A stretch of 64,000 bases of DNA from Candidatus Poribacteria bacterium (GCA_965204355.1 OZ241983.1:500483-564482), one strand, 5' to 3'. Shown: positions 25,259-63,485, counted from the first letter of the stretch. Program-made: numbers and translations. Notes: generated by a model from the letters alone, not told the origin.

Positions 25259-25758
25259 AATCCCAATTCAGTGTAAAGGGTTTGCTTGTAATAATACGGA
25301 CCAGATTTTCCTTGTTGCTTATAGTGATCGTGACTCGCTGACCAATTATCTAATGCATGCTGTACAATAGCAGCATTAAAACTGACATAGACGACCAGTT
25401 CATCACGTATTATGGGTGGACACCTGACAGAATCTTGTTGTCTGAGTCCATTCAAATTAACACCAATTATCGGGATATCTAAAGATAACGCTTGTTCCAT
25501 CTCCCACCGTACAAACCGATAAAGATATCGTGTATTTTCCCCAATTAAGACTACCATAATTTTGCTGTTTTTCAATCTTACCCGGAGCCGCTGCCTAATT
25601 GACTCTGTTAAACTTGTGTCCCGCCCAGTATTTAAATCGTGAGCATCAAAGAAGTTGAAGGAAAAGCCATCATTTTGCTTCCAAGCCTTCATCAACCAGT
25701 AATAGCGTATATCGGTGTCACCATCAAAACACACGTATGTTTTGTTTCTGTAAGGCAT
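25255..25758 (-). CDS. thsB: Thoeris ThsB, TIR-like domain protein (DUF1863/MTH538 TIR-like)
   Basis: 167-aa ORF. KTYVCFDGDTDIRYYWLMKAW...FDAHDLNTGRD...IMVVLIGENTRYLYRFVRWEMEQALSLDIPIIGVNLN aligns motif-for-motif with Bacillus cereus ThsB (FFSFHYQD...FDASLWED...VTCVLIGSQTFNRRWVRYEI...IIGIHIN). Confidence 0.8.
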   Translation of the reverse strand: MPYRNKTYVCFDGDTDIRYYWLMKAWKQNDGFSFNFFDAHDLNTGRDTSLTESIRQRLRVRLKNSKIMVVLIGENTRYLYRFVRWEMEQALSLDIPIIGVNLNGLRQQDSVRCPPIIRDELVVYVSFNAAIVQHALDNWSASHDHYKQQGKSGPYYYKQTLYTELGL

Positions 25759-25845
25759 AATATCGCCTAATTTCCTTTCTAAATTGGATGTCAGAAATCA
25801 TTTCCGCAGTATCGCATAGTAGCGGTATTGTTTCCTGATTGCACT

Positions 25846-26202
25846 TCATTTCAACTGCTTGGCAATTGGAACTATGTCTTCGTCTGGTATTTGAGAAAGT
25901 TTCATAAGATTGTAAAGATAATCACCTATTCTATGGAGGGTCATATCACTAGGTCTTACACTCCTCATTCTAGACAGAACATTTCGTTCAAAAGTAATAG
26001 TATCTGATTTAAAGTGAATATATTCCTTGCTATAAAGATCGCTGCATTCATAAAGTACTTGATAGAGATTTTCTTCAATCCTTGCATACTCACGGTAATT
26101 ATTATCGCGCAACTCGTAGGCATCTTTTAGTATACAAAGTTTTAGTATGCATAGTTGTTGGTAAGTTAGTTGCTCTGCAGCCTTTATGAGTTGGTGTGCC
26201 AT
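25846..26202 (-). CDS. hypothetical protein (defense-island resident, no recognisable domain)
   Basis: 118-aa ORF, AT-rich codon usage like the neighbouring Thoeris genes; I recognise no motif. Confidence 0.4.
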   Translation of the reverse strand: MAHQLIKAAEQLTYQQLCILKLCILKDAYELRDNNYREYARIEENLYQVLYECSDLYSKEYIHFKSDTITFERNVLSRMRSVRPSDMTLHRIGDYLYNLMKLSQIPDEDIVPIAKQLK

Positions 26203-29420: not shown

Positions 29421-30845
29421 TTAATTCCTTTTTAACCTCACCCGCAGCTCAGCAACTGTGCCTGTTCCCTTCAGTGAATTGCAAGCCCCACACAACAGCC
29501 ATAAATTCTCAAAATGATCTGTCCCACCCTTACTTCGCGGAATCTTGTGGTCAATCGTCAAATTGCGAAATGGGAAGTGAATCTCGCACCCGCCACATAT
29601 CCCCTCTTGCAGCCCATACAGTGTGTGCTTATGCGTTCGGGCAGGCGGTATATCGCTCATGTCAGTGCGCTGTGGATAGTCGTCGCGGTGGACAATCTCT
29701 GGGAATAAGCCTTGATCTGCTTTGATACGTTCTACCACCAACTCGGCTGCCTTTGATGAAATATCAATCCCTACCCATCTCCGCTGCAACCGGTCTGCTG
29801 AAACCAATGTCGTGGCACAGCCACAGAAGGGATCAAACACAACATCACCGGGGCTGCTACTAGCTTTGATGATGTGCTCTAGGAGAGCAAGAGGTTTCTG
29901 TGTGGGATAGCCGGTACGTTCTTTTCTACCTGGACCTTTGACTTCAGCGATTATATCTTGCAATGCACGCCCCTGACTCGCATCTAGATATCTCTTGAGT
30001 CTTGGCATTGTTCCGTTATTGGGCCAATAAATGAGATCCGCTTCATTGAGGATATCTAGGCGGTCATGCACACTTGTTATTTGCCTGTAATTTGGGATGA
30101 AGTGTTTTTCGATATATTCGGCATAAGCGCCGGTGCGCGGCGGTCTCCAGTGATTCCCAACTGTAGTAGGATCAATGTTACGCCACGGTTGTCCGGACTC
30201 CCCTTGTCTTGGTCCTGATGCTGTGAGATCGCTAGCACTATATCGACCACGAGCATCTTTATTACGGTAGTATTTTTTGACGTACTCCGGATCATGCGCT
30301 TCATACTGTGTGTGCCATGTCGCCCCTTCACCCCTGACATAATAAAGGAGGGTGTCGTGGATGCGCCCAAATCGATTCGGATCGTTGTGAGTTGAGGTCC
30401 GCTTCCAAACAATTTCATTCCGAAAATTATCAGCGCCAAAGATACTATCCATCACCAACTTCAGGTAATGAGAGGCGGTCGGGTCGCAGTGTAGATAAAT
30501 GCTCCCCGTGTCTTTCAGGATACGCCCCATCTCCAGTAGACGGGTAGACATCATAATGAGGTAGCTTTGCATGCCTTTGCCGTGTGTTTCGCGTGCTGCT
30601 TGTATCACGGTGTGGAGGGATGGGGCTTGTTCAGCAAGTTCGCCGTGTTCAGCGATATCAATGTCGTTGAGGGTCCAAGTATCTTTGAAGGCGGCACCGG
30701 CGGCTCGGCTGCCAATGGGGGCGGCATAATTGCGGTTAGAATTAAAGGGTGGATCGAGATAAATCAGATCGACGCTATCGCTATTCATCCCCCGCATAAT
30801 GTGCAAGTTATCACCGATGAAGATGGTTTTGTCTTTCCAGTTCAT
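29421..30845 (-). CDS. DNA amino-methyltransferase (beta-class, N6-A or N4-C) fused to C-terminal HNH endonuclease domain
   Basis: 474-aa ORF. Motif IV DPPF (DLIYLDPPFNSN) precedes motif I (VFDPFCGCATT) and TGYPTQKP. The C-terminal HNH has CGGCEIH...IDHKIP...HFENLWLLCGACNSLKG. Confidence 0.7.
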   Translation of the reverse strand: MNWKDKTIFIGDNLHIMRGMNSDSVDLIYLDPPFNSNRNYAAPIGSRAAGAAFKDTWTLNDIDIAEHGELAEQAPSLHTVIQAARETHGKGMQSYLIMMSTRLLEMGRILKDTGSIYLHCDPTASHYLKLVMDSIFGADNFRNEIVWKRTSTHNDPNRFGRIHDTLLYYVRGEGATWHTQYEAHDPEYVKKYYRNKDARGRYSASDLTASGPRQGESGQPWRNIDPTTVGNHWRPPRTGAYAEYIEKHFIPNYRQITSVHDRLDILNEADLIYWPNNGTMPRLKRYLDASQGRALQDIIAEVKGPGRKERTGYPTQKPLALLEHIIKASSSPGDVVFDPFCGCATTLVSADRLQRRWVGIDISSKAAELVVERIKADQGLFPEIVHRDDYPQRTDMSDIPPARTHKHTLYGLQEGICGGCEIHFPFRNLTIDHKIPRSKGGTDHFENLWLLCGACNSLKGTGTVAELRVRLKRN

Positions 30846-31159
30846 TCGTGTTAGAAAACTACCTTGTTATGAATTCTGGGATTGCCGTTTCATTCTCTTG
30901 GGAGTGGGAAGTATCACCAGGCGGTGATGTCATATCCCCCCACGAAAAGGATAGTAATGTATACCCTATACAGAAAGCCCTGTCAACTCATAATTCTAGC
31001 TGACAGCGCTCTTATTTGAATCTCACCATCTTTATTTCGTTGACTTTTTTTTTACGGCTCATGTATGATTGAGAAATTATGGTGAACTTTAGAATTACTT
31101 GAGGGGTGTGCATAAATCACTTTCGTATGGGAGAGCAATCTGCGATTCAGACAGATGGC

Positions 31160-31235
31160 ACATGTCGCCCCGCTGGGGCTTTGGGGGATGGGGCTATCCG
31201 TATGCTATAAACATGTCGCCCCGCTGGGGCTAAAT
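31160..31235. repeat. REP-like bipartite palindromic element, family B (copy 1)
   Basis: ACATGTCGCCCCGCTGGGGCTT-(28 nt)-CTATAAACATGTCGCCCCGCTGGGGCTAAAT. Each half holds the hairpin GCCCC-GCT-GGGGC. Related copies at 46610 and 51126. Confidence 0.75.
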
Positions 31236-31504
31236 GCACCCTGTCCCTTTCTAAAATAGTCCCGTTTCACTTTCCAGTTTCTATCCCCGATAAATCGGGA
31301 TTAAGAAACCTGAGAATCCTGATTCAGACAATAATGATGCACACCCCTCAATTACTTGGACACTCTGTACCGGCGAGGTTTCCTAACCGCACCGCCTCCC
31401 GACGAGTCGGGACAGGACATGGGGAGCGAAAGTGTCTACATATTTTGATAATTCACAATAAATCAACCCAGTCACATAGTGATTCTGATAATAAGGGAGG
31501 GCTG

Positions 31505-32389: not shown

Positions 32390-34414
32390 ATGGCCTCAAC
32401 CCAAACGCGTGAAATTCCGTGGACGGACATAGGGGAACCGCTGGCGGATCTGCTTCGGTACGAACGCAGGATTGGTCACTACGAACACGCAGGTTACGCT
32501 TTACTGTCAACGGTTGTCCATGAGACAGCGGATTCGGCGTGGCGGCAATTCCTATTGGTGGGGGATAATTTTGCTGAAGTGGCCGGGCAGGTCATCGCTA
32601 TATCCGATAGAGAGTCCAAAAATCCCAAACAGGTTCTTGACTCAATCCGCTCACTTGTCGATGCGGCTTACGCCCAGGCGCCGGAAAGAGCAGGGCAGTT
32701 CCTGAAACCATACCTGAAGCACAGGCCGAGTTTCCCGGATCCTATCCGAGAGAGGTTGGACGCACTCTCAATGCGGGGGAAACGCCGGATCCCCCTTCGT
32801 GCAACTGCTTTCGCAGCGGAGATGGAGCGTCTTCGACCGTTTGAGCCGTACAGTGATGTAGCAGAAGCGGTGTCCGAACATTGGTACGAACAGATTCTGC
32901 AAGGGAGCATAACCGCCCGCCAAGTACGCAGGATACCGGCGCGGATACTCACCGCGAAAAAACGCTTGCTCAACCATCTGCGTGAGGTTGAGGGGGATAG
33001 CGTGATTGATGAGGAAACCCTCTTTGGCAGGTATGCAGGTGTTTTTCAGTCAACCGATATCTTGGGGCTGACGGACGTTATCGTTGAGATACCTCGTTTC
33101 AATCTGATATATCGCTTTCATGTCGAGTTCGGTGTAGCAGAGATTGGGCTTTTCTTGAGAAACTTTCCGACGGCGGAGGTACTCAACCGTTTTGAGAAGT
33201 TAGAGGGGTGGATGGGTAAATACCACAAGACAAATCACGATGGCACAATACTAACTCCACCGCTGATTAATTTTCTATCGCAGCAAGCGGATTTTGATTC
33301 CCTTCTAATTGAACTAGACCGATATCGAGCGGATACGCGGAACGGACGATTTGACGTAACCAACATTTTGCAACGGGATCTGGAATTCAGACGCTTCGTC
33401 TACGAGTACACACGGGTGCTGGAACCGCTGACCTATGAACTCCAAGGCAGATATCCGCCGCTGAAGTCGCATAAGGAGTTGTACCGATTATTCAACCAAC
33501 TTGAAGAACTACCGCCGGTTACCGTTGATGCGCCTGATTTGAGCGAACAACATCTCGCAGAAGTCGGTCGAACTGCATACGAAGCTGTGGAGTTTCTCAA
33601 GTTTTTGAGAGGGTTCCAAGCGCGTACCAGCAGGCATATTGTGGTAGTGGGGAACGACCGTTACGGACGACAGTGGGTTGTGGAACCTATCGAAGCGTAT
33701 CTCAAAGAGGGGTTTACGCTTAGGTATGACCGTGTCCGCTCCGGGACATCTACAAGGTTGAGTGTACCCTCCGCTTTCCCAAGGGAATTTGTCAAAGAGA
33801 TTAGTGAACGGATGCCTCATATTGTCATTGTTGACGCGTCCCATGCGCCGCCGGATACCGATGTGATGCAGCTTTCCCGCGGTCTCCGAGGCTATGCCCA
33901 CTGGTTTGCTGCCTTCAACGACATTCGCGCGGAAGGCGATCTTGCCAGATACCGGGATGAGAGTTCACTTCCCGCGGAGCATTTTCCCGAACTTATGAAA
34001 TGGCACGACTACGTTGCACGGAGAGGACAGTTACGGGAATGGGTTTCGCCGGGGCAGACTTACCGGGTGACGACTTGGGCACCGGAGTTGAAAGACACCG
34101 TAATATTGGGCGACATGCGAGTGAAGCGGTATCCTCCGGTCTCCCATGAGGAGATAGGGGGCGACTTACCGATGGTGATTCTGGCAAACCCTATAATATA
34201 CCGCACAGAGGGTGAGGACCTGCCAGATGCGCTGCGGGGCACCACACCACGCCACTTCGATGACCCTGAAGCCCATGCAGTGGATAGTGTTGTGTTCGGA
34301 TTTGGCTCCCACGGACTTGAAACCCGACTTGAGGGAATGAGCACAGAACAGTTTGTCCAGATCGCTCAGGGACACATCAAGAAGGAGATCGATAGGCTGT
34401 TAGAAGAATCGTAA
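32390..34414 (+). CDS. large hypothetical protein (674 aa), no recognisable domain
   Basis: Long uninterrupted ORF, 6 bp after the isomerase stop and 12 bp before the BKACE gene. Codon usage is host-like; I recognise no motif. Confidence 0.5.
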   Translation: MASTQTREIPWTDIGEPLADLLRYERRIGHYEHAGYALLSTVVHETADSAWRQFLLVGDNFAEVAGQVIAISDRESKNPKQVLDSIRSLVDAAYAQAPERAGQFLKPYLKHRPSFPDPIRERLDALSMRGKRRIPLRATAFAAEMERLRPFEPYSDVAEAVSEHWYEQILQGSITARQVRRIPARILTAKKRLLNHLREVEGDSVIDEETLFGRYAGVFQSTDILGLTDVIVEIPRFNLIYRFHVEFGVAEIGLFLRNFPTAEVLNRFEKLEGWMGKYHKTNHDGTILTPPLINFLSQQADFDSLLIELDRYRADTRNGRFDVTNILQRDLEFRRFVYEYTRVLEPLTYELQGRYPPLKSHKELYRLFNQLEELPPVTVDAPDLSEQHLAEVGRTAYEAVEFLKFLRGFQARTSRHIVVVGNDRYGRQWVVEPIEAYLKEGFTLRYDRVRSGTSTRLSVPSAFPREFVKEISERMPHIVIVDASHAPPDTDVMQLSRGLRGYAHWFAAFNDIRAEGDLARYRDESSLPAEHFPELMKWHDYVARRGQLREWVSPGQTYRVTTWAPELKDTVILGDMRVKRYPPVSHEEIGGDLPMVILANPIIYRTEGEDLPDALRGTTPRHFDDPEAHAVDSVVFGFGSHGLETRLEGMSTEQFVQIAQGHIKKEIDRLLEES

Positions 34415-40730: not shown

Positions 40731-40822
40731 AGGCCCGGTAGGTGCGTGGGTTGAAACGGCGCAGTTACAAACAGCGCCTACCAAACGGGAGCCCGGTAGG
40801 TGCGGTTTCTAACCGCACCGGG
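40731..40822. repeat. REP-like palindromic element, family A (copy 3, inverted orientation)
   Basis: CCCGGTAGGTGCG...GCGCAGTTACAAACAGCGCCTACC...CCCGGTAGGTGCGGTTTCTAACCGCACCGGG is the reverse complement of the copies at 19026 and 20412. Confidence 0.75.
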
Positions 40823-45582: not shown

Positions 45583-46398
45583 CTATCCTGAAAATCCTGA
45601 TTCGGTTTTGGCTAGTTGTTCAATAAATGCTGCATGAGCGGTAGCCTGTAGTCCTGCCCCCAATTCTGATGAGACCTTCACTCGATCTCCTTCTATCAGT
45701 GCTGCCACCGCCAAACGTAAGCCGGGAAAGACTTGACTCTCAATGACTCCCTCCGCATTGGGAACCAACGCCGCATATTCTTCATTGACAAGCCGAAACC
45801 AATCGAGTCGTCCATCCTGTGTCTGCCACACAATATATTCCTGCACACCACACCGGCGGTACACCTCAAGTTTTTCCTGTAAATCGTAGTCCGCGCTAGT
45901 CCCAGCGATTTCGACGATTAATTCTGGTGCACCCTCTACATACCCTTCGTCAATGATGCGTGACCGTCCTCCCTGTGGAGGTTCTATCCGTAACAGTGCA
46001 TCGGGTTGGTGTTCATTGTTGGAATCGAGGTAAACTGTGGTGTTATCTGCCAAGTCAACACCGGGGGTTGCTATCCAATACGCCCCTAACCATGCCATAA
46101 TCTGAGCGTGGGGTCTGCCATGAAAATCTATTCGTACAGGTGATGGCGTGTACACAACTCCTTCAATCAATTCTGCTTTTTTCAGATGGGGCATCCCCTC
46201 ATAGCGCCGTTCAAATTCGTCCCGCGTCAGCCGTTCACCGTGCTTCAGTGGTGGAACATTCTCGCTGTGCATTGTCGGTTGTGCACGAACTTCCTTCTCT
46301 GTCGTTCTTCCGACACTCATGATGAGTATTCCTCCTCTCATTACTCCAGTACTGTTAGTTTGCGGACTCGGATCACAATCTAACAGATCGTGGTACAA
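45583..46398 (-). CDS. Uma2 family (DUF820) putative PD-(D/E)xK endonuclease
   Basis: LTRDEFERRYEGMPHLKKAELIEGVVY...IVEIAGTSADYDLQEKLEVYRRCGVQEYIVWQ follows the Uma2 pattern. True start uncertain (several in-frame Met). Confidence 0.65.
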   Translation of the reverse strand: MYHDLLDCDPSPQTNSTGVMRGGILIMSVGRTTEKEVRAQPTMHSENVPPLKHGERLTRDEFERRYEGMPHLKKAELIEGVVYTPSPVRIDFHGRPHAQIMAWLGAYWIATPGVDLADNTTVYLDSNNEHQPDALLRIEPPQGGRSRIIDEGYVEGAPELIVEIAGTSADYDLQEKLEVYRRCGVQEYIVWQTQDGRLDWFRLVNEEYAALVPNAEGVIESQVFPGLRLAVAALIEGDRVKVSSELGAGLQATAHAAFIEQLAKTESGFSG

Positions 46399-46609
46399 GA
46401 GAATACTTTTACGAGATAATTTTTTGAAGTCGATTTTGGAAAATCGACCTACAGCAGGGCTAATCGGGGCCCATTAACTTTGGTGCTAGTTAGTGAGAAA
46501 GTCGTTTCCACATTGTTCCAGTCGCTTTGGATCCCGATTTATCGGGGAGTTCATTGGTCGGTTGGTTCATTCATTCTTCTTACGTTCCATCCTTCGGATA
46601 CACATGTCG

Positions 46610-46660
46610 CCCCGCTGGGGCTTTAGGATATTTGTTTATCCGTGTACTATAAACATGTCG
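46610..46660. repeat. REP-like element, family B (copy 2, second half truncated or disrupted)
   Basis: ACACATGTCGCCCCGCTGGGGCTTTAGG...CTATAAACATGTCG; the matching ...GGGGCTAAATGAACC tail lies ~70 nt away at ~46727. Confidence 0.6.
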
Positions 46661-46844: not shown

Positions 46845-49800
46845 TTACTTGAGTATCAGCATCCGTCGCGTCGCTGTGAATTCTCCTGCTGTCAGCGTAT
46901 AGAAATAGAGGCCACTGGCAACAGGTTCTCCAAGTTGGTTACGTCCGTCCCAATAGGCTGCACGGCTGCGACTCTGATACATACCCGCTGCTTGATGCCC
47001 CACCGCCAACCGCCGAATTGATTGCCCATTCCCATCATAAATCGTCAGCGTGACTTCTGCCGGCTCCGCCAACTGATACGGAATCCATGTCTCCGGGTTA
47101 AATGGGTTTGGATAGTTACGGAGCAATGCAGTCTCATCGGGAATCAGTGAAGCCAACAGTTTTTCGAGATTTTCGATGCCCTGTCTGAACGCGAGCGAGC
47201 CGTCGTCTTCCAACCGTGCCTGTGCGATCCACGCTTCTATCATTGCCGCATCTATGTCATCTGTCCCAACCAGCGGTGCTGCGGGAGCGGCGGCGTTGCC
47301 GATTGCCTGCGCGACGACAGCCAGATCAAGGATGTTGACAACACCATCACCGTTGACATCCGCAGGATCGTCAGCAGAAACCCTTTGATTCAGTTTCTGT
47401 GCGACAAGCACCAGATCCACAATGGTGACAACCCCATCTCGATTTACGTCTCCCGTAGTAAGCTCGCCCTCAACAGTGATGCGGATTCCGTGGGCAATTG
47501 CATCAATCGTATCACCGCCAAGCGAGACGAACTGGAGGTTACGCAGTGTTACCTCCGACTCTCCACTCGATTTCGCTTTGAAGCGCGCCTTCACCAGGGT
47601 GCCGGTGCCGGTGACGCCTTGAGTGGATAGCCGCGCAGCGGTGAGCCCAGTGATTTGACCTTTACTATTATCAATGCTCCCACTTTGAAAGAAGGTTGCT
47701 GCGCCTGTCTTTAGGAAACCACCTTCGCTCACGTCTACGGCTTCAAGTATGTTGGGATCAAACACAATATCAAACTGATAGCCCATCAAGTTCGAGACAT
47801 TTCGGGCGTGAATATCGAGGGTAAACGTCTCGCCACGATGAATGGTTGCTGGAGAAATGGTGTATTCAACACCGGTATTTGCCACGGTATATTCCGTACC
47901 CGGTTCAAACCCAAAAAAGCCGTTACCATCGTCATCATGGATACTAACCGCGACTAATAAGACATTTCTTCCCTGCTTCAGTGCGACTGAGACAAAATCT
48001 TGGTAATCGTTACCATGCCAATAAGGTCTGCGCCTGTAAATCGCAGTCCCGTTGAGCCAAACCTTTACCCCGCGTTTGCCGCCGACGTACATCGTTGTAT
48101 TCTGTTCCCGCGGAGAATACAGCGATATAGAACCGTAGACCGCTCCATCTCCGTGGATCGCTCCGTCAAGATGGGAACGTTTCAACATATCTTCAATGAT
48201 AGCTCCGAGGTTATTCCAGCCCGTAGGTGGGAGGTTATGGTAGGTCCATACATCATCACCGACAGGTTTTCCTGCTGTTGCCCCACGGGTAGCAATCCCG
48301 ATCTCTGTTACCGTGCCCCCACTCACTTCTGATAGCAAATCTATGTTTCTGCTATCCAGTCTTGCCTCCGGTAACACAACCCATAGCCACGGGCCCTCTA
48401 TTTTCGGTCCTCCTTTTGGGAACGCCGGATTACCGAACCATGTAAGTTTTATATTCTCTCGTAACCCGTCCAAAGGCGAAAGGTCAGAAATCTTGTTGTC
48501 GTAGATTCCCAGCCATTCCAAGTTGGCTAACCCTGCAATCGACGATATATCCGATATATTGTTCTCACCAAGATCCAGACGAGTTAACTTGGCTAACCTC
48601 GAAAGGACTGATATATCTGATATTCCGTTGCCGCGAAGATACAGTTCTTTCAAACCCGTTAAACTCGCCAAAGGCATAAGGTTTGATAGATCTGCGCCAC
48701 AAATATCTATCCTTTCCATTTTTGTTAATCCTGCAAGGGGTGACAGATCGGATATGGGGTTGCCCCATGTATTAATGCCTTTCAGGTTGATTAACCCTGC
48801 AAGGGGCGATATGTCAGAGATTTTGCCTTTGCCATCGGAAAAAGCTATCCACTCCAGATTAATTAGTCCTGCAACCGGCGACAAGTCGGTTACCAAAGTG
48901 TCATCCAATACCAATTCAGTGAGATTTGTTAAACTTCTCACTGGAGATAAATCGGATACCAAAGTGTGATTCAACACCAGATATTTGAGGTTTTTTAAGC
49001 CCTGCAGGGGTGATAGATCAGATATGGGATTATAGTGAAGGGAGAGTCTACGCAGGTTGATTAATCCCGCTATCGGCGAAAGGTCAGATACCTGATTGCC
49101 CTGCCCTCCCCAATGACCAAGAATTAACTCGTCCAAATTTGTTGCAAACTGAAGCCCTGTCAAATCTTGGATGCCCTTGTTCCGTGCATCGAGTTCTCTC
49201 AACCTTTTCATCTCCTCCACAGTAATTGGAGCATTGGGGTTTTTACCAAGTTCCTCTGCAATTGCAGCACGGAGGTTGGGGTCAGGAATACGAACAACGG
49301 TTCCCGGCGGCTGGTCAGGCTGCGAGGGACTGTCTACCTGTTCGTCAGGGAAATCCAATGCGTAAATGATCGCAGGAAAACTTGATGTCCATGCGTCCCG
49401 TTTCATGCTGCCATTGGGACTGTCCAATACCAATAATCCTGCGTTCTGTAGCCCTACATTCTCACGGATCTTCTCTTGGAAGGCTGCTGTCTCTAACCCA
49501 ACGACCGCGGCAGCGTATTCAGCGTCCACCTCACCCTGAAACGCCTCATGGAAACGAGCAATCGGTTCAATATCATCAACCGCGCCGTCTGTCGCTTCAA
49601 GAGCACCCCTATACCGCTCCATATCTTCAGCGATGAGCGCGTCCAGCCTCGACTGCTCGACGTAAAGGCGTAACACCTGCGCTTTGTCATAAGTTGGGTT
49701 GGCATTGCTCTCTATCACGGGACGCACCTGATCCACAACGGCTTTTATGCCTTCGGTATGGCAACCGAAACAGGAGAGTCCGTTCCGCACCGTCGGATCA

Positions 49801-51008
49801 CTCGCTGCGGGATTAGAAACAATCCCTATCGGTGCTGCGTCCAACCGCGAACCCGCCGCCGTCGTGATGTAGTAACCTTGTAGCCCGTTGGGCAGGTTGA
49901 AGATAACCTCGCCGCCATCATGGGTGAAAGCGAGGGGGTGGTTGAAGATGTTCTGTGTGCCGACACTGCCAGCGAAGTCGTAACTTTTCCAATATGCGTC
50001 ATAGCGAGAGGTATGTCGTTCTATCACCCGGTTGTTTGGAGACACCCCTGAATTGTTAGTCCCTGCCCGCCAGACACGCACACCCGGTGCATTGGTGATA
50101 TTGCGCGCCACATCAACCTCAAGTCGAGTTTCTAATTCCCTATCTGTCAGTGGCAAATCGAGTAGATCGTGGTACAATGGGGGTAAAGATGCTGTCGCAA
50201 GAAACCAGTCAACATGCACCGATGGCATATCACACTTCATCTCCGTCTGTAACCGCGTCAGTTGTACCTTCAGGGCGGTCTGTGTTGGGGCATCATACGC
50301 GATATGGTAGGGATATGTGCCTTCAATCTGCGTCCAAGCGTCATTGACATCCCACTCGTAGTGTCTGAGGTCGATGTAGAAAATTGTCCCCTGAGTGTCT
50401 ATCGGCTCCGGGTTGGTAACGGCACTCCCCCATGAGAGGCTGTTGACTAACTTGTTAAGTCCCTTACGGTATTCTTGGAGGATGCTCGGTGGCTCGCCTG
50501 CGTTGTAGAGGTGGGTGAGTGTGAAGTAACGGGCAAAGGCGCGGTTAAATGGTGAGAGAGTCATCAGGTGGGTTTCGATGCTATTGAGCATTTCACTGGG
50601 GGAGATGAGGCGACGGTCTGTAGGAGCGGGTGCCGTCCAATCGGGTGCACTGGCTAAAATCCAGTTTTTCACTGTTTCAATCTGCGGATCGGGTAGAGGG
50701 GGGCCTCCCAGCGGCATCAGTTGTCCCCCTTCTCCAAGAAGCCGCTTATACAGTCTAGAAGCTTCTGGGGTTCCCGGAACAACGGGACCGTTTTCTGTAA
50801 TGAGTGCTTTGTGTTCCATTAAGAGTGTTTCTTTATAGGCACCGTTAGGACCGTGACAGTTGAAGCAGCTCTGTTGAAAGATGGCGTAGGTATCTAGGGC
50901 AATCTGTTGTTGGGCGGATATGTTTTGGGAGCATGCGATGAGGATTAATAGACTGATGAGTGCGATGCGATACTGCTGCTTACAAACCACTGAATAACGC
51001 TTACACAT
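46845..51008 (-). CDS. giant secreted multidomain protein (1.39k aa) with cytochrome c (2x CxxCH), leucine-rich repeat, cohesin-like and dockerin-like domains and a T9SS C-terminal sorting domain
   Basis: Signal peptide MCKRYSVVCKQQYRIALISLLILIACSQNISAQ (start ATG 51008). CFNCHG and CFGCHTE heme motifs. ~11 LRRs (L..L.L..N.ISDLSPL). Cohesin-like beta-sandwich. Two dockerin-like DVNRDGVV/DVNGDGVV calcium loops. C-terminal NYPNPFNPETWIPYQL...IYDGNGQ...WDGRNQLGEPVASGLYFYTL matches the Por_Secre_tail pattern. Confidence 0.7.
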   Translation of the reverse strand: MCKRYSVVCKQQYRIALISLLILIACSQNISAQQQIALDTYAIFQQSCFNCHGPNGAYKETLLMEHKALITENGPVVPGTPEASRLYKRLLGEGGQLMPLGGPPLPDPQIETVKNWILASAPDWTAPAPTDRRLISPSEMLNSIETHLMTLSPFNRAFARYFTLTHLYNAGEPPSILQEYRKGLNKLVNSLSWGSAVTNPEPIDTQGTIFYIDLRHYEWDVNDAWTQIEGTYPYHIAYDAPTQTALKVQLTRLQTEMKCDMPSVHVDWFLATASLPPLYHDLLDLPLTDRELETRLEVDVARNITNAPGVRVWRAGTNNSGVSPNNRVIERHTSRYDAYWKSYDFAGSVGTQNIFNHPLAFTHDGGEVIFNLPNGLQGYYITTAAGSRLDAAPIGIVSNPAASDPTVRNGLSCFGCHTEGIKAVVDQVRPVIESNANPTYDKAQVLRLYVEQSRLDALIAEDMERYRGALEATDGAVDDIEPIARFHEAFQGEVDAEYAAAVVGLETAAFQEKIRENVGLQNAGLLVLDSPNGSMKRDAWTSSFPAIIYALDFPDEQVDSPSQPDQPPGTVVRIPDPNLRAAIAEELGKNPNAPITVEEMKRLRELDARNKGIQDLTGLQFATNLDELILGHWGGQGNQVSDLSPIAGLINLRRLSLHYNPISDLSPLQGLKNLKYLVLNHTLVSDLSPVRSLTNLTELVLDDTLVTDLSPVAGLINLEWIAFSDGKGKISDISPLAGLINLKGINTWGNPISDLSPLAGLTKMERIDICGADLSNLMPLASLTGLKELYLRGNGISDISVLSRLAKLTRLDLGENNISDISSIAGLANLEWLGIYDNKISDLSPLDGLRENIKLTWFGNPAFPKGGPKIEGPWLWVVLPEARLDSRNIDLLSEVSGGTVTEIGIATRGATAGKPVGDDVWTYHNLPPTGWNNLGAIIEDMLKRSHLDGAIHGDGAVYGSISLYSPREQNTTMYVGGKRGVKVWLNGTAIYRRRPYWHGNDYQDFVSVALKQGRNVLLVAVSIHDDDGNGFFGFEPGTEYTVANTGVEYTISPATIHRGETFTLDIHARNVSNLMGYQFDIVFDPNILEAVDVSEGGFLKTGAATFFQSGSIDNSKGQITGLTAARLSTQGVTGTGTLVKARFKAKSSGESEVTLRNLQFVSLGGDTIDAIAHGIRITVEGELTTGDVNRDGVVTIVDLVLVAQKLNQRVSADDPADVNGDGVVNILDLAVVAQAIGNAAAPAAPLVGTDDIDAAMIEAWIAQARLEDDGSLAFRQGIENLEKLLASLIPDETALLRNYPNPFNPETWIPYQLAEPAEVTLTIYDGNGQSIRRLAVGHQAAGMYQSRSRAAYWDGRNQLGEPVASGLYFYTLTAGEFTATRRMLILK

Positions 51009-51125
51009 AGAGAGTGGCTCCTGAAATGCGAGTTTGTAAAGGTTACGGCACACGGCGTCGCGACAAATTGGGACGATAATCTGTGCCCTCTGTCTCATCC
51101 GTTGAATCCGCGATTTAGACAAAGG

Positions 51126-51210
51126 GAACATGTCGCCCCTCTGGGGCTTGGAAGGAAGGGCCTATCGCCCGGCTATAAACATATCGCCCCTCTGGGGCTA
51201 AATACCCCCA
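51126..51210. repeat. REP-like bipartite element, family B (copy 3)
   Basis: AACATGTCGCCCCTCTGGGGCTTGG-(N)-GGCTATAAACATATCGCCCCTCTGGGGCTAAATACC, between the giant gene's start and the AKR gene. Confidence 0.75.
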
Positions 51211-55621: not shown

Positions 55622-55907
55622 TTGTTTTTTTGCCCTTTGCTTTGTGTTGGTGTGTTTCTTGAGATATTATCACAGATTCTACTAGGAAACCATGAAAAAC
55701 TTCACTGGGGGAAAGCGGCTATTGTGGTATTTTTGCGACGGCGGTGTGGCACAGTTTCGACAGTCTCTTTGTGAGGATGACACTCCCTTCGAGATTACGA
55801 CTTATGTTAAAAGCAGGTGCACAGTTGTCCGAAGAAGGCGTTTTTCGAAAAACTCCAATACATTTCCCATGATTCGGGATAGTTGTGGTATCTATGGTAA
55901 ACCCTAA

Positions 55908-55970
55908 AAACAGATAGACGCTTTCGCTCCCCGTGTATGGTAGGCGCTGTTTCCAACTGCGCCTATACGG
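55908..55970. repeat. REP-like element, family A (copy 4, first hairpin only)
   Basis: AAACAGATAGACGCTTTCGCTCCCCGTGTATGGTAGGCGCTGTTTCCAACTGCGCCTATACGG is near-identical to 19026-19086. Confidence 0.75.
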
Positions 55971-56064
55971 TTTGTATCAGATCCTATCTAACTCCGTTGA
56001 AATATTGACAGAACCTGATGAACCTTTTCAGTCCACCCAACACTAAAAGGGGTAGGAGGACATT

Positions 56065-57035: not shown

Positions 57036-59534
57036 GTGAAATACCCCTTATTGATATGGAATGCGAGTTTGTATCTGTTCTTCATTCCTTTATTGTTAAT
57101 TCTGTTACTCCCACTTGCAGCGCTATCTCAAACTGGGACAATTGAAGGCACCGTTTATGATGGAAATACTAACACACCGATAGTCGGGGCAGATGTCCGT
57201 ATCCTCGGAACCGATGAACGCCAAACAACCGACACAGAAGGGAAATTCTGGTTCATAGAAATGGTTCCAGGCACCTACACTGTGTCAATAACTCACGAAA
57301 TGTACGACACCCCTACAGAAACCGATATAGAGGTAATGGCAGGTCATACCACCCAAGTAAAATTGTATCTCGGCGAGGTGCTTATGCTCGAAGAGGTTAC
57401 TGTTGAGGGGGAACGTCTCCCACCAACAGTTAGTCGAAAAGACATCCGTGGAAGCGAACTGATACGTATCCCCGGCGTCGGTAACGATGCGCTCAAAGGG
57501 TTGACCACGCTTCCGGGAATCGGTGTTCCCAATGATTACTTCGGCATTCTCTATATCCGTGGAAGTGAGCCGGGATCTAACCTCTACTATTTCGACCGGA
57601 CACCGCTCGGATATCCGTTTCACTGGGGCGGTCTGCTCTCGACCGTCAGTTCGGAAATCATTGATAAAATTGATATCTATGCCGGTGGATACGGTGGGGA
57701 ATTTGGGTTGGATTCGCAGGCGGTGTTGGACATCCAATCACGCGATAGCATAGAGGAGCAGATAAGCGGTAAATTTAACCTGAATATCCTCTACTCCGAA
57801 GGGATGCTTGAGCGCAGACTTGGGGATGAGGGATACGTCTCTATCGCTGGACGACGGAGCTACATCGATCTCATTGTTGGACAGTTCATTGGTGAACAGC
57901 AGTTTCCCTACTTTTCGGATTATCAACTCAAATTTGCTTATCCCCTCGGTGAAAAGCATCGCCTGACGCTCAACAGCTTTGCTGCAACCGACCATTTCCA
58001 CGTTGAAGAGACGACATCTGTAGAAGTTACGGAAGTGGAGAGTGGCCAAATGGAAGAAGAAACGCAGACATTTGAAGGGGGGCGCGCCTCTGCCTTTTTC
58101 AAAAATGGGTTTAACGCACAAGGCCTCCATCTCCGTTCAAATTTCACTGAAAATCTTACCTCCCACCTCTCGCTTACCCGCTCCTTCAATTTTCTCACTA
58201 TCAACTTTGAAGCGCCCATCACGGAGTCGTATGAATTCGGTTCAGACGGTGAACTTGTGTCTGAAGTAGACTACGGTCACTACGATATAAATATCAGGGT
58301 TCCAGTCTATACGTTGAGGGAAGACGTGTCCTACCGATTGAATCTACGCCCTGGCGATACTAGGAATCAAAGTGCGCCTGCCGCATTGGAAACAGGACTC
58401 CTTCTTTCCTTCAGTCCTGCCAACAGTTTCGAGGACAGCAGGCTCCCGCAATTTGAAGAGCGCGCGGACCACGAAGAAACGGTTACCCTAGTTGTTGATG
58501 AAAATGGGGGGATGGTCGAAGAAACTATCGTGGGTGGAGAGGGATTGGAGTTAGTCGATATTGAAGAAAACCGCTACGAATTCGGGCACGATTTCCGGCG
58601 CGCTGAGGGCTACTTACAGGGGCGATATGACCCGCTGCCTTTTCTATCTGGTGCGCTAGGGATTCGGTTGGATTATCTGGATGTGACAGGGCAGACCTCC
58701 ATTCAGCCGAGGGGGAGCTTAAGTTTTGCGTTGCCGAGCGGTTCCAATCTCCGGTTTGCGTATGGACATTATGAACAGAGTCCACAACCGCATCAGATAC
58801 TGTCGGAGAACGGGAATTCTGCGTTGGAATCCAGCCTTGCACGGCACTATATCATGGAACTTGAAGGCGAACTCTCAGCTCGAACAGAATTCAAGTTTGC
58901 TACCTATTACAAGGATATGCAGAAGTTGGTCACAGCGGATGAGATAGCGAATTATCTTAATCAGGGCACTGCGTATGTTAGCGGCGCAGAGGCGTTCCTG
59001 CGACACCGTGTGCCGGATAAATTCTTTGGCTGGATCTCGTATGCTTACACACACGCTGAGCGGCGCGAGAATCCGGGGGATTCCTACCGACCTTATTTTT
59101 TTGATAACACCAATATTGTTAGCGTTGTTGCCAATTATAACTTCACGCCCAAGTTTGAGATTGGCGCGAAGTGGCAGTATTTGAACGGAACCTCTGAGGT
59201 GCCAATTAGTTCTGTCGTGCTGGTTCAGGACCCACTGACACGTGGATTGAACCCGCTTTTGGCGGATATTGATGAAGCCGTCACTGCCGAGCTGACCCCG
59301 TATCACAAGTTGGATCTCCGGCTGAGTTACAAATTCGACTTTATGGGCTTACGGATAGGTGCGTTTCTCGATATTCTGAACGTCTACAACCGGAAAAACA
59401 GCGTGAAATTTGTCTTTACTCCGGATGAGCTGCTTGAGGTCCAAGGTGAACAGGTGGAACTCGAAGAGCCTGAAATCTTTGAGGCGCAGCAATTCCCGCG
59501 CATTCCCTATTTTGGTCTAACGGTTGAATTTTAA
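57036..59534 (+). CDS. TonB-dependent receptor-like outer-membrane protein with N-terminal carboxypeptidase-regulatory-like domain
   Basis: Signal peptide; CarbopepD_reg-like segment (GTIEGTVYDGNTNTPIVGADVRILG...GKFWFIEMVPGTYTVSI); plug-like segment; long beta-barrel region ending in a terminal aromatic (...GLTVEF). Confidence 0.6.
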   Translation: MKYPLLIWNASLYLFFIPLLLILLLPLAALSQTGTIEGTVYDGNTNTPIVGADVRILGTDERQTTDTEGKFWFIEMVPGTYTVSITHEMYDTPTETDIEVMAGHTTQVKLYLGEVLMLEEVTVEGERLPPTVSRKDIRGSELIRIPGVGNDALKGLTTLPGIGVPNDYFGILYIRGSEPGSNLYYFDRTPLGYPFHWGGLLSTVSSEIIDKIDIYAGGYGGEFGLDSQAVLDIQSRDSIEEQISGKFNLNILYSEGMLERRLGDEGYVSIAGRRSYIDLIVGQFIGEQQFPYFSDYQLKFAYPLGEKHRLTLNSFAATDHFHVEETTSVEVTEVESGQMEEETQTFEGGRASAFFKNGFNAQGLHLRSNFTENLTSHLSLTRSFNFLTINFEAPITESYEFGSDGELVSEVDYGHYDINIRVPVYTLREDVSYRLNLRPGDTRNQSAPAALETGLLLSFSPANSFEDSRLPQFEERADHEETVTLVVDENGGMVEETIVGGEGLELVDIEENRYEFGHDFRRAEGYLQGRYDPLPFLSGALGIRLDYLDVTGQTSIQPRGSLSFALPSGSNLRFAYGHYEQSPQPHQILSENGNSALESSLARHYIMELEGELSARTEFKFATYYKDMQKLVTADEIANYLNQGTAYVSGAEAFLRHRVPDKFFGWISYAYTHAERRENPGDSYRPYFFDNTNIVSVVANYNFTPKFEIGAKWQYLNGTSEVPISSVVLVQDPLTRGLNPLLADIDEAVTAELTPYHKLDLRLSYKFDFMGLRIGAFLDILNVYNRKNSVKFVFTPDELLEVQGEQVELEEPEIFEAQQFPRIPYFGLTVEF

Positions 59535-59587: not shown

Positions 59588-60259
59588 ATGAAATGTAATC
59601 AAGTAGAGGAAAAGTTAATCCATTCGATTGATGAGGAATTGTCTCCACAGATTCGAGAGCATCTTCTCGGCTGTGAAGAATGCGAGCAGAAATATAGAAT
59701 CTTACAGGAGACACAGAAATCTCTAAGGGATTTTGGCCGTGCCGTTCGAGATGGTTCCATTTCGATGGAGGCACCGCCATTTCCGCCGGTTCGACGCCGT
59801 TCCTTCTGGATCGAAATACGCGATAGCCTGAAAACACCGGTGCCGGTGTGGGTGCCCTCTGCTATCGGTGTGGTGGGGTTGTTGTTACTCGTTATGGCGA
59901 TTTTTTCGCCGCTCACCCCGCCGATGGAATGGGGCCCACAAAAAGGGAATGAAAATGCAGGTCGCATCGCTCCACCCCTCTCGGCGGAGGGGATGTTGGA
60001 GTTTCTCATTATGCCTACACCAATGGACGCAGCACAACTCGCCGCCTCAATCGAAACAGTTGAAACGTTCCTGAAGATGCATCCGGATGATCTCGCGATG
60101 CACGCCAAACTGGTTGAACTGTATCAATCTCGACTTAAGTTGGGGGAACTGTCCGCCGGCGAGCGTGACGCCATGACAGAGAAATTATCACTTGAACGAC
60201 AACGTTTTTCAGCGCTGCTGGAAAATTTTACGAAAGGGGTAGAGAATGATTCAGAATAG
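59588..60259 (+). CDS. zf-HC2 anti-sigma factor (single TM)
   Basis: MKCNQVEEKLIHSIDEELSPQIREHLLGCEECEQKY carries the H-x3-C-x2-C anti-sigma zinc motif, followed by the TM helix VWVPSAIGVVGLLLLVMAIF. Confidence 0.65.
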   Translation: MKCNQVEEKLIHSIDEELSPQIREHLLGCEECEQKYRILQETQKSLRDFGRAVRDGSISMEAPPFPPVRRRSFWIEIRDSLKTPVPVWVPSAIGVVGLLLLVMAIFSPLTPPMEWGPQKGNENAGRIAPPLSAEGMLEFLIMPTPMDAAQLAASIETVETFLKMHPDDLAMHAKLVELYQSRLKLGELSAGERDAMTEKLSLERQRFSALLENFTKGVENDSE

Positions 60260-60293
60260 CTTGGGACAAACGAGTGGATGGAAGGAGGGAAAG

Positions 60294-63200
60294 ATGGAAG
60301 GATGGAACCAATCTTCCATCTTTGCTTCCGCTTGCATCTTGATTCGATGGGCGCTTTCGGTCTGTAGTTTATTTGTAATTTTTTCACAACCCATCTACGC
60401 TGAACAATATGCCATCCTCGTGGGCGTTTGGGACTATGAAAATCCAAACTTACAGCTTGATGCTCCGCCAAACGACTTGAAGCTGATGGAAGCGGTGCTC
60501 TCGGCACAGGGCGTCACACAGGAACAGATGCACATCCTCCCCAATCCGAACAAGGCACAGATTCAGCGTAAATTCCGGGAACTCAGCCGACGCCTGACCC
60601 CTTCCGATAGCCTGCTTTTTTATTTTAGTGGGCATGGGACGCAGATAATTGACAAACTCGGAACTTTTCCCGGGGATGAAGCGAAAGGGCGATACCCGGA
60701 CAGGAACGATGAAGCGCTGTTGCCTGTGGACGCGGATCTGGCATCACCCAAGACGTACCTATTGGATGACGAACTCAATACCTTACTCCAAGAACTACCG
60801 ACGCAGCAGGTCTCCTGCATTATTGACACATGCTACTCCGGCGACATACTTCGAGAGATTCGTCTGGGACGGCCCAAAGGCTCGCCGGTGGCGGACACCC
60901 CAACGGGGATCGTTCAACCTACCCAGATTGTAAGCCATACGGAGGACATCTTAGATGAATCCGCCGATTTTGCGCTGCTGTTAGCGGCTGCTGCCTACAA
61001 TCAGGTTGTTCACGAACTACGCATCCCGATTGGCAAGACCTATCTCCCTGTCAGCGCGATGACCTATTCCCTCTATCGACGGGTGTTTTCCCGGTTGCAA
61101 AATCCTGCAAATGGGGCGATTGGGGGGCAAGGGTCCGGTGGACTGACGTATCGACAACTTGTTCAGCACGTTCAGAACGATCATAGGCAGTGGAATTTGG
61201 CGTGGCAGCCTGTCCTTGAGGGTCCGGAGGATCGCTTCGATGAAACGTTTCTCCCTAATGGTTTAATGGTACATCAGGAGAAAATGTTAACCCTCACGAC
61301 GATAAAGGGACAGTCGATAGCGGTGAGCCAGCGGGCGTTGGCGCTTGCCGGCGGTGGCAGTTTCCAACTGGGTGCCGCAAGTGGTGTTAACACCCGACAT
61401 TGGGCGATTGTTATCGGCGTGGATACCTACCCATCCCCCTTCCAGTCGCTCAAGTATGCCGCCGATGATGCCAAAGCGGTCGCGCAGGTGCTCCAAGACG
61501 CAGGAGCCAACGTGACGTTGATGACACCCGATAGCCTAATTCAACCAACGAAAGCGAATGTAATTAAACAACTCCAACGACATGCTCAACTTGAAGCGGT
61601 GGATCTGCTGACCGTTTATCTTTCCGGGCATGGAGAGGATGTCAATGGAACAGGTTACTTCCTGCCGATGGATGTCACCGATCCACTCATGGACAGTGGG
61701 CTGAGTCTCGAAGATCTCTTTGCGATTCTCAACAGCGCAAACGCCAAACATCGCTTTGTCATTGTTGATGCGTGCCGTGTGGCACCAAAGGAGCAGTTTG
61801 TTGTAGCGTTGTCGCGTTATAGTGAGGAGAGTAACATCATCTTCACCGCGTGTGATAGCAACCAGTGGGCACCTGAAGTGCCGCGCCTGAAACATGGGTT
61901 GTTTACCTACTTCTTGCTCAAAGGGTTGCGCGGCGACTACCAAGACCGGGGCGCAGCGGGTCCCGATGGGACTGTCACGGTATTGGGGTTATTGGATTAT
62001 GTGACACGCGGCATCGAAGATTGGCACTCCCACCTGTCCGAAGAGCAACACTACCCGCAGCAGATTACGCCCCGCGTTTTTTATAACGGGAAATATATTT
62101 CACTGTTAAACAACCACGGAATTGATCCGCCGGTGATCAATAACGAAGGGCTGCCGCCCCGAATTGCCAACGTTTCTCCAATTCAACCCACCCGTGATTT
62201 AGAGTCATTCCCTCCCTCGGAGAAGAGTGGTGGTATTGCGTCGCCAAACGCAAAAGGCGATGATTTACATCTACCTATGACAATTTCACTGATTCCGTGG
62301 ATAAGCACTGCCGGATTTCAAGATCCTAACCGCAATATCACAACGAACCTTTCCCTCAACATCATCGCGGGCTATCATACGAAACTTGATGGGCTTGAAT
62401 TGGGTGGAGTTTTGAACATAAAGGGAGTTGAAGTACAGGGTATACAAGTTGCCGGAGTCGGCAATATCGTCGGTAGGGATGTAGATGGTTTTCAGATCTC
62501 GGGCGGACTCAACGCTGCGGGTAGAGACGTGGAGGGTTTCCAAGCCTCGGGAGGGCTTAACGTCAGCGGCAGGGATCTCGACGGCTTTCAAGGGGCTGGT
62601 GGGGGTAATTTTGTGGGTCGCGACCTCCAGGGATTGCAGATTAGCTCCGGGCTAAATCTCGTTGGGAGAAATGTGTTAAGTCAAGGTCTACAAATCGCAG
62701 CAGGACTCAACATTGCAGGGACTTTAGAGGGAACACAAATCAGCGCAGCCGCTAATATCGCGCTTGGTCGGGACCAAGAAGCAAACATCCCGTACGCCGG
62801 CACACAGATTGGGGTGGTCAATATTGCGCGCGGCATGATTGGCACACAGATTGGACTTCTCAACATCGCTGGGCATGTGGGTACGACACAGGTGGGGCTT
62901 CTCAACGTCTCCGGACGGATGTCCGGCCTCCCGATAGGATTAATCAGTTTTGTTAAGAATAACCCGCTGCATCTGCAACTGTGGGGTAGCGATACGGAGG
63001 TCGCAAACCTTGGGATTCGACTCGGTAGCCGGCACGTTTACAGTCTGTTGATGGTCGGCAGTTATCCGCACGGCGATTTGGGCAGATGGTCGTCTGGGTT
63101 TGGTGTCGGTGGGCATATTCCACTTAGCAAGCGACTTTTTCTGAACGTTGACTTTATTACGCGTGGGGTGGCTTATACCGACGAGTCGGGGGAGAACACG

Positions 63201-63485
63201 GCTATCCGACAACCCACGAGCAGTTTGGTACGAGTGACTTATACCGACAAGTTGGGGGAGAACACTTGGGAGTATGGCGAACAGGCCGTCTTGAACAAAC
63301 TGCGCCTTGCGTTCGGCTGGGAGCAGCACAAGTGGTTCAGTGTCTTTGGTGGTGTTTCACTCAACGTCCTCGTCTCGGATAGACGGGACACTTCGGATTT
63401 TGGATACGGATTTGAGCACGTATATCGAAGCGATGATACGACCGTTCGGATTTGGCCCGGGTTCTTTGCGGGGGTTCAGTTTTGA
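60294..63485 (+). CDS. double caspase-domain (peptidase C14) protein with beta-solenoid-like repeat region and C-terminal outer-membrane-barrel-like tail
   Basis: Signal peptide. Caspase domain 1 (YAILVGVWDY...FYFSGHGTQ...CIIDTCYSG). Caspase domain 2 (WAIVIGVDTY...VYLSGHGED...FVIVDACRV). ~25 degenerate 10-11-aa repeats (GxQ[IV]xGGLN[IV]xGR...). The protein ends ...FFAGVQF. Start set at MEGWNQ (60294); the ORF could start at 60246. Confidence 0.6.
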   Translation: MEGWNQSSIFASACILIRWALSVCSLFVIFSQPIYAEQYAILVGVWDYENPNLQLDAPPNDLKLMEAVLSAQGVTQEQMHILPNPNKAQIQRKFRELSRRLTPSDSLLFYFSGHGTQIIDKLGTFPGDEAKGRYPDRNDEALLPVDADLASPKTYLLDDELNTLLQELPTQQVSCIIDTCYSGDILREIRLGRPKGSPVADTPTGIVQPTQIVSHTEDILDESADFALLLAAAAYNQVVHELRIPIGKTYLPVSAMTYSLYRRVFSRLQNPANGAIGGQGSGGLTYRQLVQHVQNDHRQWNLAWQPVLEGPEDRFDETFLPNGLMVHQEKMLTLTTIKGQSIAVSQRALALAGGGSFQLGAASGVNTRHWAIVIGVDTYPSPFQSLKYAADDAKAVAQVLQDAGANVTLMTPDSLIQPTKANVIKQLQRHAQLEAVDLLTVYLSGHGEDVNGTGYFLPMDVTDPLMDSGLSLEDLFAILNSANAKHRFVIVDACRVAPKEQFVVALSRYSEESNIIFTACDSNQWAPEVPRLKHGLFTYFLLKGLRGDYQDRGAAGPDGTVTVLGLLDYVTRGIEDWHSHLSEEQHYPQQITPRVFYNGKYISLLNNHGIDPPVINNEGLPPRIANVSPIQPTRDLESFPPSEKSGGIASPNAKGDDLHLPMTISLIPWISTAGFQDPNRNITTNLSLNIIAGYHTKLDGLELGGVLNIKGVEVQGIQVAGVGNIVGRDVDGFQISGGLNAAGRDVEGFQASGGLNVSGRDLDGFQGAGGGNFVGRDLQGLQISSGLNLVGRNVLSQGLQIAAGLNIAGTLEGTQISAAANIALGRDQEANIPYAGTQIGVVNIARGMIGTQIGLLNIAGHVGTTQVGLLNVSGRMSGLPIGLISFVKNNPLHLQLWGSDTEVANLGIRLGSRHVYSLLMVGSYPHGDLGRWSSGFGVGGHIPLSKRLFLNVDFITRGVAYTDESGENTAIRQPTSSLVRVTYTDKLGENTWEYGEQAVLNKLRLAFGWEQHKWFSVFGGVSLNVLVSDRRDTSDFGYGFEHVYRSDDTTVRIWPGFFAGVQF

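Follow-up and report, generated by a model that had tools for sequence, protein, structure and literature searches.

The gene considered here lies on the minus strand, at positions 46845-51008, of a 64-kb stretch of DNA from Candidatus Poribacteria bacterium (GCA_965204355.1, OZ241983.1:500483-564482); the whole stretch is called the window, and all positions are counted within it. Its product joins a predicted haem module, an array of leucine-rich repeats (LRRs), a cohesin, a dockerin and a sorting-type C-terminal domain (CTD), and parts of it have analogues in systems already described. Cellulosome adaptor and anchoring scaffoldins, such as ScaA and ScaB of Acetivibrio cellulolyticus with their type II cohesins, carry a cohesin and a two-loop calcium dockerin on one polypeptide, as does the present protein, and non-cellulosomal modules offer further comparators in Archaeoglobus fulgidus (2xdh) and Clostridium perfringens (2jh2); as in cellulosomes, multi-cohesin partner proteins occur in the same phylum. 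[quoted passage not shown] T9SS type A cargo of Bacteroidota, including the gingipain RgpB and the cellulases of Cytophaga hutchinsonii, likewise combines a Sec signal at the N-terminus with a terminal beta-sandwich, at the other end, of about 89 residues that passes TIGR04183, and in both cases the tail is common to diverse cargo, but the present organism stands outside the Fibrobacteres-Chlorobi-Bacteroidetes (FCB) group and a second tail model, PF18962, falls below threshold in this copy. Class 1 internalins of Listeria (InlA, InlH/InlC2) also have an N-cap followed by 22-residue LRRs, but the likeness is confined to the LRR region, and the present protein has neither the inter-repeat Ig domain nor an LPXTG or GW anchor. 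The relatives of the N-terminus are PSCyt1-type domains, represented by planctomycete PSCyt1 proteins, on which we found no functional work in the searchable literature, and by the iron oxidase FoxE (PDB 5mab); here it is a 435-residue domain that follows, and not PSCyt2/PSD1 or a second FoxE-type domain. Finally, the variable proteins of diversity-generating retroelements (DGRs), with their CLec/FGE-sulfatase fold, also combine a constant N-terminal part with a diversified binder, but no DGR lies near the present gene, whose diversity consists in paralog expansion and LRR number.

Judged by comparison with its homologs, the gene is one paralog in a large family of Poribacteria that encodes modular proteins of the envelope or surface, designed as a constant chassis bearing a variable binding head. 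We propose, with moderate confidence, that the family forms a modular network of surface adhesins or receptors, which would depend on export by Sec, on the attachment of haem, on the tail for delivery to the outer membrane and on calcium-dependent links between cohesins and dockerins, with polymorphic heads made of LRRs and a jelly roll, and with the haem module as a conserved redox or small-ligand unit; the result is probably a self-assembling cell-surface layer for host contact. Every module that an earlier reading of the same DNA, made without database searches (the sequence-only reading), had named is present, and an N-terminal signal peptide was found in addition. Matches to named modules were judged by the curated cut-offs of hidden Markov models (HMMs) in Pfam and NCBIfam, and the parts of the gene are as follows:

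46845..51008, minus strand: the whole gene for the haem-LRR-cohesin-dockerin-CTD protein; 1387 codons and a stop, product identical to database protein P0001.
51018..51022, minus strand: Shine-Dalgarno-like AGGAG, 9 nt 5' of the ATG at 51008; read from the sequence, function putative.
50913..51008, minus strand: Sec signal peptide, residues 1-32, cleavage predicted between ISA and QQQ; found by inspection.
50649..50903, minus strand: class-I cytochrome c domain (PSCyt1/FoxE-like), residues 36-120.
50853-50867, minus strand: CFNCH haem motif, residues 48-52, inside the cytochrome c domain.
Residues 98-99: Met-Pro axial-ligand motif, in the cytochrome c domain.
49344..50648, minus strand: un-modelled haem domain, residues 121-555, 435 residues.
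49758-49772, minus strand: CFGCH, the second CxxCH motif, residues 413-417, inside the 435-residue domain.
49284..49343, minus strand: proline-rich linker, residues 556-575, of low conservation among paralogs (0.60).
48393..49283, minus strand: N-cap and about 13 internalin-type 22-residue LRRs, residues 576-872; LRR_4, LRR_8 and 66-nt repeats.
47874..48377, minus strand: 'mid' beta-sandwich, residues 878-1045, about 170 residues; weak, consistent matches.
47514..47873, minus strand: cohesin module, residues 1046-1165; PF00963.
47289..47471, minus strand: dockerin module, residues 1180-1240, with two DxNxDGxxxxxD calcium loops; PF00404.
47115..47288, minus strand: helical linker, residues 1241-1298; two helices predicted, dockerin-associated.
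46848..47114, minus strand: C-terminal sorting-type beta-sandwich (T9SS type A CTD-like), residues 1299-1387, 89 residues; TIGR04183, FlgD_ig.

The scale of the family is evident from several searches. With the N-terminal 560 residues as query, the genome collection yielded at least 79 loci; 73 of the 74 that matched beyond cytochrome c come from Candidatus or uncultured Poribacteria, the other (L064) being labelled 'uncultured bacterium', while among the loci listed from outside Poribacteria only the 75-residue cytochrome c part was matched. Most loci lie on closed chromosomes of 5-7 Mb; OZ242335.1 has at least 14 of them, OZ242036.1 at least 10. A protein search returned more than 4,000 matches, of which the best 120 share the architecture over their full length at 65-79% identity, several of them encoded on the same 6-Mb contigs, and HMMs built locally for the family found 68 full-architecture copies, including tandem pairs, in 1.1 Mb of poribacterial DNA. 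An expansion of LRRs and the presence of TIGR04183 tails in Poribacteria have already been published (PMC3909097); in the searchable literature we found no description of the architecture or scale of this family, of poribacterial scaffoldins and split partner genes, or of the un-modelled two-haem module.

Conservation is distributed unevenly along the protein. Among paralogs the CTD (identity 0.85) and the haem domain (0.83) are the most conserved parts, and the LRR array and mid domain (0.64 each) the most variable, the former also ranging in length from 268 to 362 residues. The LRR array itself matches LRR_4 (110 bits against a cut-off of 27, E 3e-32) and also LRR_8, and its coding part shows periodic DNA repeats of 66 nt; the NCBIfam models of class 1 internalins align over the LRR part only and score far too low (InlA 162 bits, cut-off 1600; InlH 150 bits, cut-off 1050). 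The mid domain is probably a jelly roll resembling galactose-binding domains, as its sequence matches suggest. Poribacteria are uncultured sponge symbionts and among the most abundant of these; with many paralogs per genome, a variable LRR head and a conserved chassis, the family is a candidate interface with the sponge host.

The sequence-only reading had described a two-haem cytochrome module, and of this the two CxxCH motifs stand, while the notion of one compact cytochrome does not: a cytochrome c domain of about 85 residues is followed by a separate domain of 435 residues, and the motifs are 365 residues apart. The first domain has the CxxCH motif and distal Met in a cytochrome c fold by which class-I c-type cytochromes are defined; its Pfam matches to PSCyt1 and Cytochrome_CBB3, at about 21 bits, are under the cut-offs, and a family profile matches solved c-type cytochromes (FoxE 2e-6, Kuenenia c-552 4e-5). 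The second is covered by no Pfam or NCBIfam model and has no sequence match in the PDB. Conservation of the haem motifs, which the sequence-only reading had made a test of its proposal, is complete in all 120 paralogs, so that the proposal is not refuted on this count, and both motifs recur in 118 of the 150 best distant cluster representatives, most of the others carrying one only; their spacing is about 345-385 residues in the listed sample of these representatives. The axial Met-Pro is invariant in the family alignment. Covalent haem is predicted on both motifs, and it is only from the motifs that a redox role, such as the sequence-only reading had proposed, is suggested.

Behind the cytochrome c domain stand 443 residues that have matches in 3,540 clusters (50% identity); for 1,417 of these clusters the match is below 1e-30. 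About 80 alignment columns in the haem module are invariant, including ERH, DWF, PPLY, GGE and LPNGxQxY, and these look like a defined pocket. An AlphaFold model of the module, computed from 45 sequences, has a mean predicted local distance difference test (pLDDT) score of 86.5 and a predicted template modelling (pTM) score of 0.81; with it Foldseek found nothing significant in the PDB, and apart from weak fold matches to cytochrome P460/c'-beta the module has no solved relative. We regard this likeness to P460 as no more than a lead. The haem domain may be a component new in its own right.

The company kept by the haem module is diverse. Its partners include FGE-sulfatase, TPR, Peripla_BP_6, TonB_C together with FGE-sulfatase, Big_5, cyclophilin, BNR and LysM, as well as WD40, beta-helix, PEGA and prenyltransferase-like domains, and some of the proteins have an N-terminal Ser/Thr kinase or FHA domain, with kinase-transmembrane (TM) architectures among them. 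The distant homolog P0178 has a C-terminal FGE-sulfatase (CLec) domain that is the apparent target of a DGR. The DGR-like locus (L082, 1637-5821; GCA_025356965.1, JANXQD010000623.1) has a variable repeat (VR) of 110 nt at 3863-3972, at the 3' end of the P0178 gene, and a template repeat (TR) at 4093-4202; the two differ at template adenines only, and bAvd and an RVT_1 reverse transcriptase follow. The P0178 case fits a design of constant module and variable binder and, because the partners are so different and one of them is a DGR target, the haem module appears to be a reusable unit placed ahead of ligand-binding domains. Since it precedes many ligand-binding or enzymatic domains across bacteria, it is most likely a redox-active or small-ligand-sensing unit coupled to the binding of the variable part. 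A more ambitious idea, possible though we think it doubtful, is that the N-terminal 525 residues constitute a sensor or enzyme module with c-type haem of a class not seen before, in which an electron-transfer cytochrome c would be connected to an open, P460-like haem in a new fold; bacteria would join this unit to variable ligand-binding heads (LRR, DGR-diversified lectin folds, TPR, WD40) and, in Poribacteria, it would sit on a Gram-negative, cellulosome-like 'adhesome' of cohesin-dockerin scaffoldins, tethered by a T9SS-like tag whose translocon would be one that still awaits recognition outside the FCB group. The two-haem module stands at the head of more than 3,500 protein clusters, and its characterisation would annotate thousands of proteins.

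The C-terminal half contains modules of known kinds. The cohesin scores 51.1 bits against a cut-off of 24.1 (residues 1052-1155) and matches the ScaB cohesin in the PDB at 3e-7; the corresponding part of the structure model has a pLDDT of 80-93, and Foldseek retrieves type II and non-cellulosomal cohesins at 1e-8. The dockerin (Dockerin_1) scores 41.2 bits against 22.9 (residues 1186-1236), with PDB dockerin matches at 4e-6. Its duplicated calcium loops, DVNRDGVVTIVD and DVNGDGVVNILD, can be read directly, and the Asp, Asn and Gly of the loops are invariant in 61 sequences. The helical linker behind it occurs in all 76 dockerin-bearing open reading frames (ORFs) and is absent from those without a dockerin, and could be a dockerin extension resembling an X-module. 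The consensus of this linker reads IEAWIAQARLEDDGSLAFxQGIENLExLLASL. Calcium-dependent pairing of cohesin and dockerin is predicted.

Potential partners were found across Poribacteria generally, rather than in the source genome specifically. In one locus (L065), a gene for an LRR-mid-dockerin-linker-CTD protein stands directly upstream of one for a haem-fn3-LRR-mid-cohesin-CTD protein that has no dockerin; in another (L064), a gene encoding three cohesins, a dockerin and a CTD is followed by a full family member and then by an LRR-dockerin-CTD gene. A search with the three-cohesin protein returned 194 proteins and, among the best 120, 54 have three cohesins, ten have two and six have four; each of these scaffoldin-like proteins with two to four cohesins also carries a dockerin, linker, CTD and signal peptide. 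The cassette of cohesin, dockerin, linker and CTD is found, too, behind heads of the LRR-only, NHL/LDL-B propeller and NPCBM/metallopeptidase types. Such a combination of cohesin, dockerin and tail is to be expected of a genuine assembly system with a common sorting tag, and would not be shown by a chance chimera of domains. The sequence-only reading saw in the protein a mix of Bacteroidota, planctomycete and clostridial types; this is no cross-phylum chimera, and the modules belong to an ordinary, combinatorial poribacterial toolkit present in hundreds of proteins. No description of cohesin or dockerin systems in Poribacteria was found in the searchable literature, and to judge by the scaffoldins and the split partner genes, a Gram-negative bacterium that is non-cellulolytic here uses cohesin and dockerin for assembly, as it seems. 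As a separate observation, a caspase-PEGA-FGE-sulfatase protein (L065, 10177-12270) adjoins a family member.

In proposing how such a network would be built, we envisage that the protein is exported by Sec, and that two c-type haems are then attached in the periplasm, one in the His/Met cytochrome c domain and one in the large conserved domain, as the motifs would predict. The C-terminal beta-sandwich would serve as a tag by which the protein crosses the outer membrane or is placed on it, in the manner of T9SS type A cargo. At the surface, the calcium-type dockerin would bind the cohesin of another paralog, or that of a scaffoldin with two to four cohesins, and so create a cellulosome-like network that would display the variable head, LRR array and jelly roll together, for binding to host or matrix ligands.

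The same assembly could instead serve nutrition, as an analogue of the cellulosome that degrades sponge matrix or dissolved polymers, with the present protein as a substrate-targeting subunit acting through its LRRs and CBM-like jelly roll, and with the haem contributing oxidative chemistry, for example of a peroxidase or oxidase type. The resemblance of the mid domain to sugar-binding jelly rolls of glycosidases would suit this, as would the NPCBM/metallopeptidase heads that precede the cohesin-dockerin-CTD cassette elsewhere; but no glycoside hydrolase or lyase was present among the sampled dockerin-bearing proteins, in which LRR, propeller and WD40 heads dominate. On the side of the haem, a His/Met cytochrome c beside a second haem recalls, by analogy only, the di-haem peroxidase arrangement of CCP and MauG, and there is a weak match to NF040606; yet the peroxidase match has an E of 0.08 over 46 residues only, and the fold comparison found no CCP-like fold. 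We consider a nutrient-acquisition complex unlikely.

In the proposal of a surface adhesin or receptor network, delivery would depend on the tail. The sequence-only reading had postulated a C-terminal sorting domain, and the tail does pass TIGR04183, the model of the T9SS type A sorting domain, with 27.4 bits against a cut-off of 23 (residues 1299-1385), as well as FlgD_ig with 37.1 bits against 27 (residues 1311-1374). Within it the motif NYPNPFNPETW is invariant, and the C-terminal end is LILK. The same domain is found at the extreme C-terminus of unrelated cargo, namely WD40, cohesin-only and LRR-only proteins, and seems to behave as a sorting tag. According to Kamke et al. 2014 (PMC3909097), many eukaryote-like proteins of Poribacteria bear TIGR04183 tails.

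A number of points count against delivery of this kind or against the proposal as a whole. The other tail model, PF18962 (Por_Secre_tail), fails in the present copy with 15.9 bits against 27 (residues 1299-1384), although it is recorded for several paralogs and reaches 29.3 bits in one of them (L034). The AlphaFold2 model of the C-terminal part is of low confidence (pLDDT 60), so that neither mid domain nor CTD can be classified by fold; GH2 beta-galactosidases are among the Foldseek matches of this model, and the sequence matches of the mid domain to GH2_N, BetaGal_ABD2 and RhaB_D2, seen in several members, are all sub-threshold (best E 0.002-0.08). The window contains no T9SS components; of the Por structural genes it is stated that they "were not found" in the single-amplified genomes (SAGs) of Poribacteria, which are incomplete (Kamke et al. 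2014, PMC3909097); reviews assign the T9SS to Bacteroidota or the FCB group; and in the searchable literature we found no paper on T9SS machinery of Poribacteria. Periplasmic-looking architectures (TonB_C, solute-binding, kinase-TM) are among those that contain the haem module, and surface exposure of the present protein is therefore not guaranteed. The domain anatomy, the conservation, the expansion of paralogs and the existence of partner proteins are observed; the loading of haem, translocation across the outer membrane, the pairing of cohesin with dockerin and the ligand all enter the proposal as predictions.

Some of these points would be accommodated if the protein stayed in the periplasm, its CTD being an Ig-like structural domain or an anchor on the inner side of the outer membrane, and its haem module a sensor of redox state or of a small ligand. 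Such a location would agree with the association of the module with TonB_C, periplasmic solute-binding domains and kinase-TM architectures, and with the failure to find Por structural genes in poribacterial SAGs. It is harder to reconcile with a tail that passes TIGR04183, always stands at the very C-terminus and is common to unrelated cargo, or with the presence of LRRs, cohesin and dockerin, the modules of internalins and cellulosomes, which are typically extracellular; the massive paralog diversification of the binding head also suits an exposed surface better. We judge a periplasmic protein to be quite unlikely, and surface display the most likely outcome that the sequence would predict. 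T9SS-type tails in a phylum where no T9SS has been found are an old puzzle, which closed genomes now make checkable.

That the haems form an extracellular conduit, passing electrons from the surface to external acceptors or to the host, is very improbable, although the protein is probably exported, keeps two c-type haem motifs and has a cytochrome c domain resembling that of the iron oxidase FoxE, as two haems only, in separate and widely spaced domains, are unlike the closely packed multi-haem chains of MtrCAB- and OmcS-type conduits, and a module fused to sensors and binders rather than to respiratory partners is unlikely to be an electron wire.

With regard to the gene itself, the minus-strand ORF extends over 46845..51131, and the protein-coding part is 46845-51008. 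The sequence-only reading was right in placing a protein of 1.39k residues there: translation from the ATG at 51008 gives 1387 residues identical to P0001, the equivalent Met is the start in all 120 close homologs, and the Shine-Dalgarno-like AGGAG lies 9 nt upstream. The longer start at 51131 was rejected because the extension of 41 codons falls in an intergenic repeat and no homolog has it. By inspection, the signal peptide has a basic N-region, a hydrophobic core and the sequence xSAQQQ, a pattern kept across paralogs, and is predicted to be of the signal-peptidase-I type. A lipoprotein signal was also considered; Cys26 is not conserved among paralogs, and the protein is therefore not taken to be a lipoprotein.

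The neighbouring genes encode a CocE/NonD hydrolase, an aldo-keto reductase, a creatininase-family protein and an enolase-superfamily protein, and a neighbouring ORF of 271 residues (45583-46398) has no NCBIfam match. A link to the neighbours was rejected. The intergenic repeats on either side of the gene resemble repetitive extragenic palindromic (REP) elements:

46601..46660, plus strand: intergenic REP-like repeat, downstream of the gene and without a part in its function.
51105..51209, plus strand: upstream intergenic REP-like repeat; source of the spurious 41-codon ORF extension.

Their hairpin core, ATGTCGCCCCKCTGGGGCT, has five matches in the window against 0 expected, and is often doubled about 51 nt apart. 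The sequence-only reading noted these flanking 'family-B' repeats, and they do exist, but their connection with the gene is not upheld: a further copy lies at 31137-31241, the core occurs in 10 of the 79 poribacterial loci, and we rejected them as part of the system because they are generic, dispersed intergenic elements. A second repeat family (D2, I4-I9) is found at 19014-19112, 20405-20502, 40753-40820 and 55899-55971.

Elsewhere in the window, two long ORFs, of 674 residues (32390-34414, plus strand) and 471 residues (22416-23831, minus strand), are without any Pfam or NCBIfam match. The 1079-residue product of 60246-63485 (plus strand) includes an EACC1-associated type of caspase domain (Peptidase_C14). 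The product of 57036-59534 (plus strand), 832 residues long, has an N-terminal CarboxypepD_reg domain resembling part of the anammox S-layer glycoprotein Kustd1514, and a C-terminal part faintly like a TonB-dependent receptor; it may be an outer-membrane protein. Finally, a gene at 29421-30845 (minus strand) encodes a DNA methylase (N6_N4_Mtase) fused to an HNH endonuclease domain, and adjoins a stretch of low GC-content (0.39 at 24001-26000) that may mark a mobile or restriction-modification island.

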